64,000 nucleotides of DNA from an uncultured Anderseniella sp. (GTDB taxonomy: Bacteria; Pseudomonadota; Alphaproteobacteria; Rhizobiales; Aestuariivirgaceae), in assembly GCA_947488295.1 (NCBI GenBank), contig CANKYU010000001.1:854183-918182 (forward strand), written 5' to 3'. Below the pieces are notes generated by a model, which saw only the letters and a program-made list of their open reading frames with translations, had not been told where the DNA came from and did no database searches. The first letter of the stretch is position 1. Each line of letters begins with the position of its first letter. This document shows, in pieces, positions 3,387 through 61,096 of this stretch. The position numbers and the translations under genes were made by a program.

Positions 3387-5332
3387 GCGAGCCCCTTACT
3401 ACGCAGGACGGTGAAGTTGCCGACGGCGCTGTTGAAAGCGGACCGGAGGTCATCAAGCGGTTCGCCAAGACGCTGCCGGGCAGGCCGGGCGTGTACAGGA
3501 TGTATAACCACAAGGGCGACGTGCTTTATGTGGGCAAGGCGCGCAACCTGAAAAACCGTGTGTCGAACTATACCAGGCTGGGCGGACATACCAATCGCAT
3601 AGCGGCGATGATCGCCAACACCAGCTCGATGGAATTTGTCACCACCAAGACAGAGCCGGAAGCCCTGTTGCTGGAAGCAAACCTGATCAAGCGGCTGAAA
3701 CCGCGTTACAATGTTATCCTGCGCGACGACAAGTCGTTTCCCTATATTCTGATCGCCAAGGACCACGACGTTGCCCAGATCACAAAGCATCGCGGCGCGC
3801 GCAATCGCAAGGGCAGCTATTATGGTCCGTTTGCATCAGCGGGATCGGTAAACACCACCATCAACCTGCTGCAGAAGGCGTTTTTGCTGCGTTCGTGTTC
3901 CGACAGTTACTATGAAAACCGGACACGGCCCTGCCTGCTGTTTCAGATCAAGCGCTGTGCCGCGCCGTGCACAGGAGAGATTTCCAGCGATGGCTATGAC
4001 GAACTGGTCAGGCAGGCGGAAGCGTTTCTGTCCGGCAAGTCCAATGCGGTGAAAACAGCCCTTGCCAGCCAGATGGAGGCGGCATCCGAGGAGCTGGACT
4101 TTGAGCGTGCGGCTGTGTGCCGTGACCGGATTTCCGCGCTCAGCCATGTTACCGCGTCACAGGGCATCAACCCGCAAGGTGTCGCCGAAGCGGACATTTT
4201 CGGCCTCGCACAGGAGGGGGGTCAAACGTGCATCCAGGTATTTTTCATCAGGGCCGGCCAGAACTGGGGCACGCGCGCCTATTTTCCGCGTGCCGACAAG
4301 TCCGTTGAACCGGCCGATGTGCTGGCTGCCTTCATCGCCCAGTTTTACGATGACAAACCGGTGCCACGCCAGATCATGCTGTCCGGCGACGTCAGTGAAC
4401 TTGACCTGCTGGCCGACGCGCTTTCAACCAAGGCCGGCCGCAAGGTGGAAGTGCTGGTGCCGCAGCGCGGAGAAAAACGCGAACTGGTTCAACACGCCAT
4501 GACCAATGCGCGAGAGGCGCTGGGCCGCAAACTGGCTGACACCTCGTCGCAGAAGAAATTGCTTGAAGGTGTGAAAACCGTCTTTGGACTTGAGCGCATG
4601 CCGCGGCGCATAGAAGTTTATGATAACTCCCACATCCAGGGCACGAATGCAGTTGGCGGCATGATCGTGGCCGGACCCGAAGGGTTGGCGAAAGCGCATT
4701 ACCGCAAGTTCAACATCAAGACCGAACAGGATACCGGCGGAGATGATTTCGGCATGATGAAGGAAGTGCTGACCCGGCGATTCTCGCGGCTCCTGAAAGA
4801 GCAGGGCGAGCGGGCGAACGAAGCCGGCGACCAAGCGGAGAAAGTCGATGTGGAGATTGACGACACCAGCGTCGGCACATGGCCCGACCTGTTGTTGATT
4901 GACGGTGGCAAAGGCCAGCTTTCAGCCGTGCAGGATGTGTTGAAGGAACTGGGCATTGAGGATGTGCCGGTTGCCGGTATCTCAAAGGGGCCGGACCGCA
5001 ATGCGGGTCGCGAGCAGTTTCATGTGTCCGGCAAGGCGCCTTTCATGCTCGAACAACGTGACCCGGTGTTGTATTATGTGCAAAGGTTGCGCGATGAAGC
5101 GCACAGATTTGCTATCGGGACACACCGGGCCAAGCGGGCCAAGGCGGCGCTTGCCAATCCTCTGGACGAGATTGGCGGCATCGGACCGGGGCGCAAGAAG
5201 GCGCTTTTGCGGGCCTTCGGTTCGGCACGGGCCGTCTCGGGCGCATCAGTTGCAGACCTCGAGCAGGTTGAAGGAATCAGCAAAAGTCTTGCAACTGCCA
5301 TATACGGTTATTTCCACGAGGGTGAAACTTGA
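3383..5332 (+). CDS. uvrC: Excinuclease ABC subunit C
   Basis: GIY-YIG N-terminus ([28 protein letters not shown]), UvrBC-interaction region, C-terminal RNaseH-like/HhH region ([16 protein letters not shown]); 649 aa. Confidence 0.95.
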
Positions 5333-5943
5333 GCGCTGGCGCTGACAAAATCAGGCATCCGAACCGGCGCGGCAACGTCGCCACCTGGCTGCCCAACATC
5401 CTGACCTACCTGCGCATTGCCGCCGTGCCGGTAGTTGTGGGGCTGTTGATCTATGGCGGAGACACCAACCACTGGATCGCCGTGGCGATATTCATCATTG
5501 CCGCGATCACCGACTTTCTTGACGGATACCTGGCCCGCATCTGGCAGCAACAGTCATCGCTCGGCAAAATGCTGGACCCGATCGCCGACAAGCTGCTGAT
5601 AGCGTCGGTCCTGCTGGCGGTTACCTATACCGGGGAGATAAAGGGTGTGCACATCTGGGCGGCGATCATCATATTGTGCCGCGAAATCCTGGTGTCGGGC
5701 TTGCGCGAGTTTCTGGCTGAAGTCAGGGTGTCTGTTCCGGTGACGCAACTGGCCAAGTGGAAAACCACCTTTCAGATGGTCGCCATCGGGTTTCTGATTG
5801 TCGGGCCTGCCGGTGACAAGGTATTTCACCATACCTCCACGATCGGACTGACGTTTTTGTGGATCGCTGCCGTTGCAACCCTGTATACCGGGTATGACTA
5901 TTTCCGTGCCGGTGTGAAGCATGTCATGGAAGAAGACGAATGA
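5329..5943 (+). CDS. pgsA: CDP-diacylglycerol--glycerol-3-phosphate 3-phosphatidyltransferase
   Basis: CDP-alcohol phosphatidyltransferase motif (DFLDGYLAR...[12 protein letters not shown]), multiple TM segments; overlaps uvrC stop (coupled). Confidence 0.85.
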
Positions 5944-33064: not shown

Positions 33065-33138
33065 TTTAGAAAGAGGGAATTGAACCCTCGACCGACAGAT
33101 TTAAAGTCTGTTGCTCTCACCAACTGAGCTATTTCTAA
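33065..33138 (-). tRNA. tRNA-like gene with anticodon UUA (ochre-suppressor-like; tRNA-Lys-like body)
   Basis: Reverse complement folds as a perfect cloverleaf: acceptor TTAGAAA/TTTCTAA, D arm GCTC-AGTTGGTGA-GAGC, anticodon stem ACAGA/TCTGT with loop CTTTAAA (U33, anticodon T34T35A36, A37), T arm GAGGG-TTCAATT-CCCTC, discriminator A. Confidence 0.55.
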
Positions 33139-33139
33139 T

Positions 33140-33211
33140 GGAGGATAAGGGGAATCGAACCCGCTTCCGCCAGCTTTAAGGGCTGGTGCTCTACCGATGA
33201 GCTATATCCGT
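33140..33211 (-). tRNA. Degenerate tRNA-like sequence (possible pseudo-tRNA), anticodon loop CCTTAAA (also reads TTA)
   Basis: D arm GCTC-ATCGGTA-GAGC, anticodon stem CCAGC/GCTGG, T arm GCGGG-TTCGATT-CCCCT with one mismatch, acceptor with two terminal mismatches; separated from next tRNA by 1 nt. Confidence 0.35.
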
Positions 33212-55393: not shown

Positions 55394-55403
55394 ACATTTC
55401 TCC

Positions 55404-56054: not shown

Positions 56055-56080
56055 GTTCTTCTGGTCGAATCTCCAGCGCT

Positions 56081-56164
56081 GTCATTCCCGTGAAAACGGG
56101 AATCCAATCCACGCCGGATACAATTGCCGATCTGGCATTGGATCCCCGTTTTCACGGGGATGAC
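56081..56164. repeat. Palindromic repeat element: two inverted copies of GTCATyCCCGTGAAAACGGGrATsm hairpin
   Basis: gtcattcccgtgaaaacgggaatcc ... ggatccccgttttcacggggatgac; same hairpin recurs at 57566-57591. Confidence 0.5.
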
Positions 56165-56222
56165 GCAGGTGCGGTAATGGTTTTAGTGTCCGTAAACTTC
56201 AAAATTGCCGGAGGACTATCTC

Positions 56223-57425
56223 ATGCGTATTGAAGCGGTTGAAACCCTGCGTCTTGGCGATCATCCCAACCTGTTGTGGGTGCGCGTGCACACCGACGCC
56301 GGGCTGACCGGGCTTGGAGAAACCTACTTCGGTGCAGGGCCCAGCGAAGCGGACATTCACGACCGCATCGCGCCGGTCATTCTGGGCCAGGACGCCAGCC
56401 GCATCGAATTCCTCAACATGAAGATGCAGCCCTATACCGGCTTCACCGGCAGCGGTGCGGAAGTGCGCGCCTTGTCTGCAGTAGACGTGGCGCTGTGGGA
56501 CATTGCCGGCAAGGCGGCCAACATGCCGCTGTGCGATGTGCTGGGCGGTCGCACGCGCGAGGCCATACAGGTCTACAATACCTGTGCCGGTCCCAACTAC
56601 GTCTCGAAAACATCTGCTGTTCGACCGGACAATTTCGGGGCTGCTTCAGACGGCAAAGCCGGTACCACGTACGAAGACCTGGATGCGTTCCTGCATCATC
56701 CGGAAGACCTCGCGGCGTCGCTGATGGAGATGGGGATTTTCTCCATGAAAATCTGGCCGTTCGACCTGGCTGATGGGGCGGTCGACGGTGTAGATATTTC
56801 TGCCGCCGATTTGAACATGGCGCTTGAGCAATTTGAGAAAATCCGCGCTGCCCATGGTGACAGGATGCGCCTGAAGGCCGAACTGCACGGGTTGTGGAGC
56901 CTGAACGCCGCACAGAAGATCGCCGCTGCGCTGGAACCCATCGGAATGGACTGGATCGAGGACCCGTTATGGATGGACCGTACGGAGGAACTGGCTGAAC
57001 TTGCCAGCACTACCAGCGCGCCGCTGGCCGGCGGCGAGACGCTGGCCGGTCTGGGGCAGTTCAAGGCGCTGATAGACGAGGGCAATATCGCCACGCCGAT
57101 TATGGACGTCACCTGGGCAGGCGGCATCACCGCAGCGCGCAAGGTTGCCGCACTGGCCGAAGCGCGCGCCAGGCCGATTGCCTTCCACGACTGCTCCGGC
57201 CCGGTCACGCTGGCCGCGTCCACACATCTCGCACTGGCCCTGCGCAATGTGCGTGAACAGGAAATCGCACGCGGGTTCTACTATGGCTGGTACCAGGACT
57301 TCGTCGACAATCTGCCGCCGGTCGAAAACGGCATGATCACCATCCCCGGCGGTCCTGGCCTGGGGATGGACCTGCTGCCGGGGCTGGTAAAGCGCGAAGA
57401 TGCCGTGCACCGGATTTCGCGGTAG
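56223..57425 (+). CDS. Enolase-superfamily enzyme (mandelate racemase/muconate lactonizing enzyme, D-galactonate dehydratase-like)
   Basis: MR/MLE N-terminal capping domain then TIM-barrel with metal-ligand Asp/Glu blocks (DxxxxxWIEDP). Confidence 0.85.
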   Translation: MRIEAVETLRLGDHPNLLWVRVHTDAGLTGLGETYFGAGPSEADIHDRIAPVILGQDASRIEFLNMKMQPYTGFTGSGAEVRALSAVDVALWDIAGKAANMPLCDVLGGRTREAIQVYNTCAGPNYVSKTSAVRPDNFGAASDGKAGTTYEDLDAFLHHPEDLAASLMEMGIFSMKIWPFDLADGAVDGVDISAADLNMALEQFEKIRAAHGDRMRLKAELHGLWSLNAAQKIAAALEPIGMDWIEDPLWMDRTEELAELASTTSAPLAGGETLAGLGQFKALIDEGNIATPIMDVTWAGGITAARKVAALAEARARPIAFHDCSGPVTLAASTHLALALRNVREQEIARGFYYGWYQDFVDNLPPVENGMITIPGGPGLGMDLLPGLVKREDAVHRISR

Positions 57426-57565
57426 GCGTAGAACCCGAGCGAGACGCATTTTATGCCGCTCACGCAAGCAGGCTTCGCCTGCGCTCCGCTGGGGCGCACT
57501 TCGTGCGGCGGCCAGTCGGCCTTGCCTCGGCACTTACGTGCCTCGGAGGGGAACTCATCACCTTC

Positions 57566-57660
57566 GTCATCCCCGTGAAAACGGGGATGACAAATGGGGC
57601 GGTGGTTCAGGTAACCATGTCATCCTCGGGCCTGTCCCGAGGATCCACTTTTGCGATAGC
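57566..57660. repeat. Palindromic repeat unit R1 (hairpin gtcatccccgtgaaaacggggatgac + conserved spacer + hairpin atcctcgggcctgtcccgaggat), immediately 3' of the GIY-YIG gene
   Basis: ~85% identical direct repeat of 57975-58068. Confidence 0.6.
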
Positions 57661-57664
57661 CGCG

Positions 57665-57952
57665 TTACGCAGTGAAATCGGCGAAAAGGTCTGCCCAGTC
57701 GGAATTTTGCTGCTCGATCAGGTTGATCTTCCAGGCCCGCCGGTAGCGCTTGATCGACTTCTCGCGCTGAATGGCATCACGCACATCGTCGTACTGCTCA
57801 TAGTAGACGAGCCGGTGAACATTGTAGCGCCGGGTAAAGGCACTGCCGGTTCCCGCGCGGTGCTGCAGTACCCGGTTGGGCAGATCACCGGTGACACCCA
57901 CATAGAGCGTTCCGTGCCTGCCTGACGCCAAAATGTAAGTGCAATACGCCAT
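57665..57952 (-). CDS. GIY-YIG nuclease superfamily protein (UPF0213/Slx1-like small ORF)
   Basis: 95 aa; CTYILASGRHGTLYVGVTGDLPNRVLQHR... GIY-YIG core and conserved Arg/Glu. Confidence 0.85.
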   Translation of the reverse strand: MAYCTYILASGRHGTLYVGVTGDLPNRVLQHRAGTGSAFTRRYNVHRLVYYEQYDDVRDAIQREKSIKRYRRAWKINLIEQQNSDWADLFADFTA

Positions 57953-57974
57953 GGCAGCACCAACCTAGCAAGAT

Positions 57975-58068
57975 GGATCCCCGGGACAAGCCCGGGGATG
58001 ACAAGTGGGGAGTGCGGTTCAGGTAACCATGTCATCCTCGGGCTTGTCCCGAGGATCCAGGTTTGCGT
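57975..58068. repeat. Palindromic repeat unit R2 (hairpin atccccgggacaagcccggggat + conserved spacer + hairpin atcctcgggcttgtcccgaggat), immediately 5' of the GIY-YIG gene
   Basis: Direct repeat of R1; the first hairpin again differs in sequence but stays palindromic. Confidence 0.6.
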
Positions 58069-58102
58069 AACCTAACTGGCGTGAATGGTGTAACTTTCCC
58101 AC

Positions 58103-58306
58103 CTAGTCCTTCAGGATAAACGTCACTTTCAGAACGACGCGGTACTCGGTGATCTTGCCGTCCTCCACGATAACACGCTGGTCCTTGACCCAGGCGCCGG
58201 TGACATTTTTCAGCGTTTTGGACGCGCGCTTTACGCCCTTGCGCGTGGCGTCTTCAAAACTGTCCTGCGATGACGCGATGATTTCCGTTACGCGAGCTAC
58301 TGACAT
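58103..58306 (-). CDS. Dodecin-family flavin-binding protein
   Basis: 67 aa MSVARVTEIIASSQDSFEDA...VLKVTFILKD, typical dodecin length and blocks; track ORF N-extension rejected. Confidence 0.65.
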   Translation of the reverse strand: MSVARVTEIIASSQDSFEDATRKGVKRASKTLKNVTGAWVKDQRVIVEDGKITEYRVVLKVTFILKD

Positions 58307-58432
58307 GGCGATTTCCTTTCCCTGTCGGGGTTCTAGTATCGCTCCCCAGCGCATCGAAACATGGTTGCATACGTCAACTGGCCGGGGAAGGGCTGGTTGA
58401 ATCATCAGCCCCGATAGAGTTAGCCGGCTGGC

Positions 58433-61096
<2,664 letters not shown>

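Follow-up and report, generated by a model that had tools for sequence, protein, structure and literature searches.

A probable Ssn/SRM nuclease-hairpin module forms an insertion-polymorphic cassette in an uncultured Anderseniella

Introduction

The pairing of a small GIY-YIG nuclease, Ssn, with a hairpin repeat, the SRM, was first published by Chenal et al. (2025; Nat Commun 16:2388, PMC11893778). In Neisseria meningitidis, SsnA is a 94-amino-acid (aa) single-domain GIY-YIG protein (CDD cd10448), treated as belonging to a family separate from UPF0213. Its binding to the hairpin repeat NTS (CGTCATTCCCGCGMAVGCGGGAATCYRG) is confined to single-stranded DNA and to one of the strands, and it cuts a few nucleotides upstream (Chenal et al., 2025). 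The biochemically characterised Ssn enzymes, from N. meningitidis, N. elongata, N. wadsworthii and Wolbachia pipientis, each cut single-stranded DNA (ssDNA) beside their own repeat, and in Neisseria the cutting restricts transforming ssDNA when it brings in a copy of the repeat (Chenal et al., 2025). With a degenerate motif, 71% of the homologous genes were reported to have at least one SRM nearby and 42% to have repeats on both sides. The authors likened the NTS-ssnA-NTS arrangement to an insertion sequence, and to REP (repetitive extragenic palindrome) and IS200/IS605-type transposases; its mobility, past or present, was only hypothesised (Chenal et al., 2025). Here we describe what is very probably another Ssn/SRM module, located in a stretch of 64,000 nucleotides from an uncultured Anderseniella sp. 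(assembly GCA_947488295.1, contig CANKYU010000001.1, positions 854,183 to 918,182). The whole of this 64-kb stretch is referred to as the window.

The locus was originally singled out from the raw sequence as a small GIY-YIG nuclease gene between two direct repeats of ~95 nt, each built of two hairpins, and this layout was taken for a possible mobile unit and, provided that the nuclease acts on the hairpins, for a distinct repeat-nuclease association. The layout was borne out by Pfam, repeat comparison and folding. The association is the one already described as Ssn/SRM; the nuclease-hairpin pairing itself is known, and the locus adds another case of it.

Results and Discussion

A nuclease gene of the Ssn family bracketed by SRM hairpins

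The gene and the hairpin features around it are as follows:

57665-57952, minus strand: ssn gene, encoding a 95-aa single-domain GIY-YIG nuclease of the Ssn family (Pfam, homology, dN/dS)
57566-57660, plus strand: R1, direct repeat downstream of ssn (repeat comparison; interval of the original prediction)
57975-58068, plus strand: R2, direct repeat upstream of ssn (repeat comparison; interval of the original prediction)
57973-58003, minus (coding) strand: inner upstream SRM hairpin, TGTCATCCCCGGGCTTGTCCCGGGGATCCAT (match to the published SRM pattern)
57618-57648, plus (non-coding) strand: inner downstream SRM hairpin, TGTCATCCTCGGGCCTGTCCCGAGGATCCAC (match to the published SRM pattern)
58030-58060, plus strand: outer upstream SRM hairpin (match to the published SRM pattern)
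57565-57592, strand not assigned: outer hairpin of R1, CGTCATCCCCGTGAAAACGGGGATGACA (sequence reading and fold)
56080-56165, hairpins 56080-56107 (+) and 56138-56165 (-): third SRM doublet, gene-less (NTS similarity and fold)

The open reading frame at 57665-57952 starts with ATG. The sole Pfam match of its product is GIY-YIG (PF01541), at residues 3-77 (E = 4.5e-14), and no NCBIfam model matches it. It is the only GIY-YIG protein encoded within the window, where no ssn paralog was found. Compared with the SsnA ortholog of N. gonorrhoeae, which stands here for N. meningitidis SsnA itself, the protein is identical at 47 of 93 positions (51%) without gaps (pairwise BLASTP, E = 7e-34), and tblastn against the N. 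gonorrhoeae chromosome gave E = 3e-23 over residues 1-93. These values lie within the homology criterion of Chenal et al. (2025), namely E < 1e-10 over >75% of the length. The N. gonorrhoeae ortholog is encoded by a 94-aa reading frame with 10 NTS copies within 3.3 kb. Residues Y6, Y17 and E64, whose mutation abolished cleavage by N. meningitidis SsnA (Chenal et al., 2025), occupy identical positions in the window protein and the N. gonorrhoeae ortholog. The two N. gonorrhoeae chromosomes that supplied the ortholog (2.17 Mb; NZ_CP119140.1 and NZ_CP119142.1, L217 in our set) are filed as plasmids.

The nearest named homologs of the window protein come from Anderseniella, Parvibaculaceae and Roseibium. 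Phage GIY-YIG proteins are at most 37-41% identical to it, and one of 15 such matches covered at least 80% of the query. The original label of the protein, Slx1/UPF0213-type, was imprecise. Although UPF0213/YhbQ proteins are of similar size, have the GIY-YIG fold and share the superfamily, the solved structures are only distant sequence matches (PDB 1zg2, E = 1.5e-5; 1ywl, E = 7.7e-4), far weaker than the match to the Neisseria SsnA ortholog. The ratio of nonsynonymous to synonymous substitution rates (dN/dS) is 0.04-0.08 for ssn, and 0.06-0.07 against the four closest homologs: the gene is functional and under strong purifying selection.

R1 ends 4 nt from the ssn stop codon and R2 starts 22 nt before the ATG. 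Aligned directly, the two are 94% identical over 52 nt (57604-57655 versus 58016-58067) and 92.5% identical over 67 nt (57582-57647 versus 57993-58059), and a weaker likeness extends to about 57676 and 58085. Their 28-nt core occurs in exactly two copies in the window and in none of the dinucleotide-preserving shuffles. As ssDNA, both repeats fold on both strands, with energies of -29 to -37 kcal/mol (z = -5.1 to -8.7 against shuffles). Each contains two hairpins, of which the first differs in its interior, as had been noted originally: CCCCGTGAAAACGGGG in R1 versus CCCCGGGACAAGCCCGGGG in R2.

The published SRM motif was coded as HGTCWYN(0-2)YYVSBRHN(0-5)WNVSBRGN(0-2)RNCYNB. It has three matches in the window, at 57618-57648 (+), 57973-58003 (-) and 58030-58060 (+), all flanking ssn, versus a mean of 0.54 in 50 dinucleotide-preserving shuffles of the window. 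The common hairpin unit is directional and reads 5'-TGTCATCC(Y)CGGG-loop-CCCG(R)GGATCCA-3'. A conserved core unit is delimited on the left by the inner upstream hairpin, which stops about 21 nt short of the ATG, and on the right by the inner downstream hairpin, 17 nt beyond the stop codon. These two inner hairpins are mutually inverted (57618-57647 and 57974-58003, 90% complementary over 30 nt), so that the gene is also bracketed by ends resembling terminal inverted repeats, and the GTCAT ends of both face outward from ssn.

The repeats themselves are doublets. R2 is an inverted one, in which the hairpins 57973-58003 (-) and 58030-58060 (+) are separated by a 26-nt spacer; its arms are 93% complementary and it can fold into one long REPIN-like hairpin (-37 kcal/mol, z = -8.6). 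R1 is a hybrid, composed of an inner hairpin of the common unit and an outer hairpin with a different stem-loop. This outer hairpin (57565-57592) has an NTS-like stem-loop (CCCCGTGAAAACGGGG), with GTCAT on both strands and without the 3' CC tail; it does not match the SRM pattern, and its stem and loop are the same as those of the hairpin at 56138-56165. The latter belongs to the third, gene-less doublet, which lies between the genes for a metallo-beta-lactamase (MBL)-fold hydrolase and an enolase-superfamily protein and is likewise inverted and capable of REPIN-like folding (-33 kcal/mol, z = -7.8). Its hairpin at 56080-56107 shares 24 of the 28 positions of the NTS consensus of N. meningitidis, and one compensatory stem pair accounts for two of the four that differ. 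Both hairpins of this doublet miss the SRM pattern solely at its final base, and 56080-56107 fits once the last two positions of the pattern are removed. Besides R1, R2 and 56080-56165, no further hairpin copies were found within the window. A scan of 57300-58450 for promoter and terminator consensus sequences found nothing and the hairpins have no T-runs, which rules out a simple terminator reading. Rfam at gathering thresholds returned only two tRNAs in the window and nothing at the repeats or at the transposable element described below. The tRNA genes are adjacent, at 33065-33211 on the minus strand (76 and 46 bits).

We are thus highly confident, short of certainty, that the locus is an Ssn/SRM module and that ssn encodes an Ssn-family enzyme, predicted to be a hairpin-specific ssDNA cutter. 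It shares with the described system a single-domain GIY-YIG protein of ~94 aa with Y6, Y17 and E64, SRM hairpins on both sides of the gene, a hairpin with a GTCAT 5' flank and a CC 3' flank, and gene-less copies in intergenic DNA. It differs in its host, a marine-type alphaproteobacterium outside the studied species, and in its flanking hairpins, which are of a 31-nt class (9-bp stem, CTTGT loop) rather than the 28-nt class of the Neisseria NTS and are arranged in inverted doublets of ~95 nt with a conserved spacer. Copy number differs as well, with only 5-6 hairpins in the 64 kb here versus the hundreds of copies reported for Neisseria.

Association of gene and hairpin across homologs

Homologs with 50-88% identity to the window protein were collected from 83 loci (80 metagenomic and 3 viral contigs) and scanned with the published SRM motif. 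An SRM lies within 200 nt of the gene at 36 of the 83 loci, and on both sides of it at 14. SRM density drops 28-fold, from 1.87 per kb at distances of up to 200 nt from the gene to 0.067 per kb beyond 1 kb. Upstream SRMs are found on the coding strand in 27 cases and on the opposite strand in 7, and typically end 14-29 nt before the start codon; downstream, 15 are on the opposite strand and 10 on the coding strand. The window locus displays exactly this family architecture. In N. gonorrhoeae, the nearest upstream and downstream NTS are oriented opposite to the arrangement that prevails in the 83 loci.

A scan of representative genomes with the exact SRM pattern gave at least 120 stretches, from Rhizobium, Agrobacterium, Shinella, Brevundimonas, Mesorhizobium, Phenylobacterium, Patescibacteria, Burkholderiaceae, Epsilonproteobacteria and Prosthecochloris. 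A homolog is encoded in 8 of the 120 hairpin blocks listed and lies within 300 nt of the hairpin in 5. The SRM is hence a dispersed REP-like family, most listed copies of which are far from ssn, and which is nevertheless strongly enriched at the gene; the co-occurrence of hairpins and GIY-YIG genes on which the original prediction hinged is real. The exact pattern in its 28-nt form also occurs in assemblies of Patescibacteria, Epsilonproteobacteria, Burkholderiaceae and Prosthecochloris (e.g. L011, L020, L039, L055 and L074). Such a wide spread of a non-coding pattern hints at horizontal spread or at a strong convergent constraint imposed by the enzyme.

The structure of the hairpin is itself conserved. 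In 23 distinct 31-nt SRMs, gathered with the SRM pattern and to that extent restricted in base classes, 96.6% of stem positions are paired, and 6 of the 9 pairs have compensatory changes on both sides. The covariation score was reached by none of 500 shuffles, and sliding the 3' partners by 1-3 columns lowered pairing to 17-59%. The hairpin is under selection, and its stem structure is kept across the family.

Presence and absence of the cassette in related genomes

Proteins 84-88% identical to that of the window are encoded in unrelated contexts, and the similarity stops at the inner hairpins. In L001-L005, ssn lies between the genes for a LysR regulator and a rhomboid protease. In L006, L007 and L138 (84-85% identical) it lies in a phage-like morphogenesis region, between the gene for a 519-aa protein and a head-tail connector gene. 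At the DNA level, the window resembles L001 from 58006 to 57618 only, i.e. inner hairpin, gene and inner hairpin, and L006 from 58059 to 57618.

Three related contig sets, whose neighbour proteins are 90-96% identical to those of the window, are without ssn at this site, and one of them has it two genes away. The site occupied in the window, site A, was located through orthologs of the enolase-superfamily protein (91-94% identity) in L129-L132 and L133 (GCA_028289645.1). Both sets are syntenic with the window, in the order MBL hydrolase, enolase-family gene, dodecin and uvrB; ssn is absent, and an intergenic region of 330-390 bp contains a miniature inverted-repeat transposable element (MITE) of ~300 bp. 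Site B, two genes from site A, is directly upstream of the MBL hydrolase gene. There L139, whose MBL, dodecin and UvrB proteins are each 91% identical to those of the window, carries SRM-ssn-SRM (L139 1255-1640), and L129 has a MITE. Since ssn is present or absent at sites A and B, the presence of the cassette is polymorphic at two sites of one syntenic neighbourhood, and the SRM-ssn-SRM core (57618-58006) is an insertion-polymorphic cassette. The locus is not fixed, and the view of it as a mobile unit gains an insertion polymorphism; it gains no transposition mechanism and no visible target-site duplication. For the Ssn/SRM system this adds direct presence/absence evidence for the cassette, where mobility had only been hypothesised (Chenal et al., 2025).

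Some details of these loci deserve mention. The phage-like context was located at L006 5885-7084; in L138 the downstream hairpin is gone and the upstream one has an enlarged loop. L001 has a DDE_3 transposase gene between the LysR gene and the ssn cassette (4854-5801), absent from the otherwise collinear L002, which has an identical Ssn. At site B of the window (55394-55403), 10 nt separate the stop codon of the upstream gene from the hydrolase ATG; the conserved leader present in three relatives is missing, which looks like a deletion. Gene-less doublets persist in relatives without ssn at the compared sites: L129 has three in 13 kb, of which 5858-5943 is the ortholog of the window doublet 56080-56165.

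The cassette did not move recently. The synonymous divergence (dS) between ssn copies is 0.9-2.3, with synonymous sites near saturation, and is at least as large as that of the host MBL gene (0.35-0.99), indicating old lineages rather than recent jumps. On these values we rejected a recent transposition of the differently placed copies.

Several observations weigh against reading the locus as an Ssn/SRM module with a mobile core. The 51% identity to the Neisseria protein is below the stricter 60% criterion of Chenal et al. (2025). Some local hairpins may not be substrates, as the outer one of R1 is without the 3' C on which binding by the Neisseria enzyme depended most. Neither a target-site duplication nor a clean empty site is visible at either polymorphic site, and there is no clean empty/filled pair, as the cassette replaces half a MITE at site A and the window carries an apparent deletion at site B. 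Finally, the ssn copies at different sites are old, and their movement is read from differing positions rather than from recent copies.

The MITE adjoining the cassette

The element next to R1 in the window is the following:

57449-57563, plus strand: left half of a separate MITE of ~300 bp (alignment with L129 and L133)

In the window, R1-ssn-R2 takes the place of the right half. The MITE is multi-copy, with terminal inverted repeats of ~50 nt (TTTATNCCGCTCRCGCRAG...) and short hairpins with TTCG and TTAC loops. Relatives contain several full copies, the element was located at L129 7225-7530 and L006 6590-6860, and another fragment lies upstream of uvrB in the window, at 60949-60992. Both MITE copies of L133 (4349-4662 and 7225-7590) carry an SRM doublet at the same internal position, after ...CATCAC, and constitute a composite MITE sub-family; R1 of the window begins at the equivalent point of its half-MITE. 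We considered that the doublets of L133 and of the window were inserted independently at one MITE target, and gave this less weight because the two L133 copies share the internal position.

With SRM doublets embedded in or adjoining a MITE, these regions resemble the intergenic mosaics in which the Neisseria dRS3 repeats and NIMEs (intergenic mosaic elements) take part: there too, variable spacers are enclosed by short hairpin repeats, which join with other repeat families. A similar likeness may hold for the RIME mosaics of rhizobia and the BIME mosaics of enterobacteria. The difference is that these names cover repeats only.

Predicted activity and routes of cassette movement

What follows on ssDNA cleavage by the 95-aa protein, on its role in the cell and on how the cassette moves is what we infer from these comparisons. 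The enzyme would be a minimal GIY-YIG nuclease, devoid of any separate domain for binding DNA. Like its four characterised homologs, it is expected to bind its cognate SRM only in ssDNA, and only on the strand reading GTCAT...GGATCC; the predicted target consists of 5'-GTCAT, a 9-bp stem, a 5-nt loop, the return stem and CC-3'. Cleavage would take place a few nucleotides 5' of the hairpin, just 5' of GTCAT. As the GTCAT ends of the inner hairpins point outward, the predicted cuts fall just outside the gene and on opposite strands. As the hairpin family is scattered over the intergenic DNA of this lineage in the form of gene-less doublets, and is present in many other bacteria, the enzyme would act in trans on many sites, presumably when these become single-stranded, for example in replication, transformation, conjugation or the entry of phage DNA. 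Its role may be to restrict transforming DNA, as in Neisseria, or may lie in replication, conjugation or defence against phages.

GIY-YIG nucleases cleave hydrolytically, and we know of no covalent intermediate, strand transfer or joining reaction in the superfamily. The cassette most likely moved by horizontal transfer and recombination at pre-existing SRM repeats, and not by a reaction of the transposase type. This route is favoured by the hydrolytic chemistry without known joining, by the predicted cuts on opposite strands at the two ends, by an insertion that replaced sequence without target duplication, and by the hybrid nature of R1, which combines two hairpin sub-types.

A more active role of the nuclease is conceivable, though we regard it as doubtful. 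SRM-ssn-SRM would then propagate itself by a mechanism of a new class, in which the nuclease nicks its own hairpin ends and the gene-less doublets, and host replication and repair copy the cassette into other SRM sites; the nuclease would spread itself and seed or maintain the repeat family. The two-site polymorphism, the similarity boundaries at the inner hairpins and the hybrid R1 would be the footprints of such a process.

A homing-type selfish cassette appears unlikely. Here the nuclease would nick SRMs exposed in ssDNA, for instance at replication forks; repair templated by an SRM-ssn-SRM donor would place a copy of the gene where there had been only SRM repeats, and recombination between SRM doublets would have left R1 and R2 as its trace. 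The junction occupied in the window (after ...TTCATCAC) holds an SRM doublet without the gene in L133, as this would have it; since both L133 copies carry the doublet at that position, however, the shared junction may reflect a MITE sub-family rather than a target. A hybrid R1 is expected after recombination between different doublets, and a doublet duplicated on both sides of an insert could be the remnant expected from integration by homologous recombination at a doublet. The 84-85% identical homologs occur in a phage morphogenesis region, a typical home of free-standing homing endonuclease genes; yet Ssn enzymes have neither the long recognition sites nor the additional DNA-binding domains of known GIY-YIG homing enzymes. 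In I-TevI and the Seg proteins the GIY-YIG domain is joined at its C-terminal side to a DNA-binding one and the target is a long stretch of double-stranded DNA, whereas the window protein is 95 aa long with the domain at 3-77.

Still less probable, in our estimate, is an autonomous element akin to an insertion sequence, in which the GIY-YIG protein would be the transposase and would move SRM-ssn-SRM and the gene-less doublets, as RAYT or the IS200/IS605 TnpA do with REP hairpins. The idea was also raised by Chenal et al. (2025), who reported only cleavage. The inner SRMs are inverted and similarity between contexts stops at them, and the cassette, besides being presence/absence polymorphic, occupies four different sites within a clade whose proteins share at least 83% identity. 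The gene-less doublets are dispersed, and the exact SRM pattern reaches very distant taxa among the matches listed; among the same matches, however, most genomic copies are far from any ssn gene. The chemistry also speaks against it, as strand transfer is not known for these hydrolytic enzymes. Whereas IS200/IS605 elements are excised as a single strand, the cuts predicted here would fall on a different strand at each end, and the anciently diverged copies (dS about 1 or more) show no sign of recent bursts. A classical insertion sequence shares the inverted ends with our cassette, which shows no target-site duplication and has no DDE, HUH or serine transposase domain.

The likeness to REP/RAYT units, suggested originally and already drawn by Chenal et al. 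(2025), is one of layout. As in REP/REPIN and RAYT (TnpA-REP, Y1/HUH) systems, one nuclease-type gene lies between inverted copies of a dispersed hairpin repeat, inverted doublets (REPINs) can fold into long hairpins, and recognition of ssDNA is expected. The enzyme is not an HUH/Y1 transposase but a hydrolytic GIY-YIG protein (the only domain found by Pfam) with no known joining activity.

That a housekeeping UPF0213-type nuclease gene merely happens to lie among unrelated generic REP or terminator hairpins we consider extremely improbable: the hairpins are a dispersed intergenic family that also occurs far from any GIY-YIG gene, and occupy the spaces between convergent or adjacent genes, as terminators would, but the 28-fold enrichment, the orientation bias and the stem covariation, the restriction of SRM matches in the window to the flanks of ssn (3 versus 0.54), the lack of terminator-like sites and T-runs, the absence of ssn from the syntenic site in relatives and the distance of the solved UPF0213 proteins all argue otherwise.

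Concluding remarks

An association published only in 2025 was re-derived here independently from raw sequence, in a layout that can be recognised by eye. To the published system the locus makes a modest but real addition, namely direct evidence, in a natural set of relatives, for an insertion-polymorphic SRM-ssn-SRM core with defined ends. Sequence-specific cutters of ssDNA are of interest to biotechnology, and the locus adds to the list of possible ones a candidate enzyme-hairpin pair of the 31-nt class, with a 9-bp stem. With the cassette at different sites or absent, its ends placed to within a few bases, and both a MITE and gene-less doublets alongside, this lineage is a natural test bed for the question of mobility that Chenal et al. 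(2025) left open.

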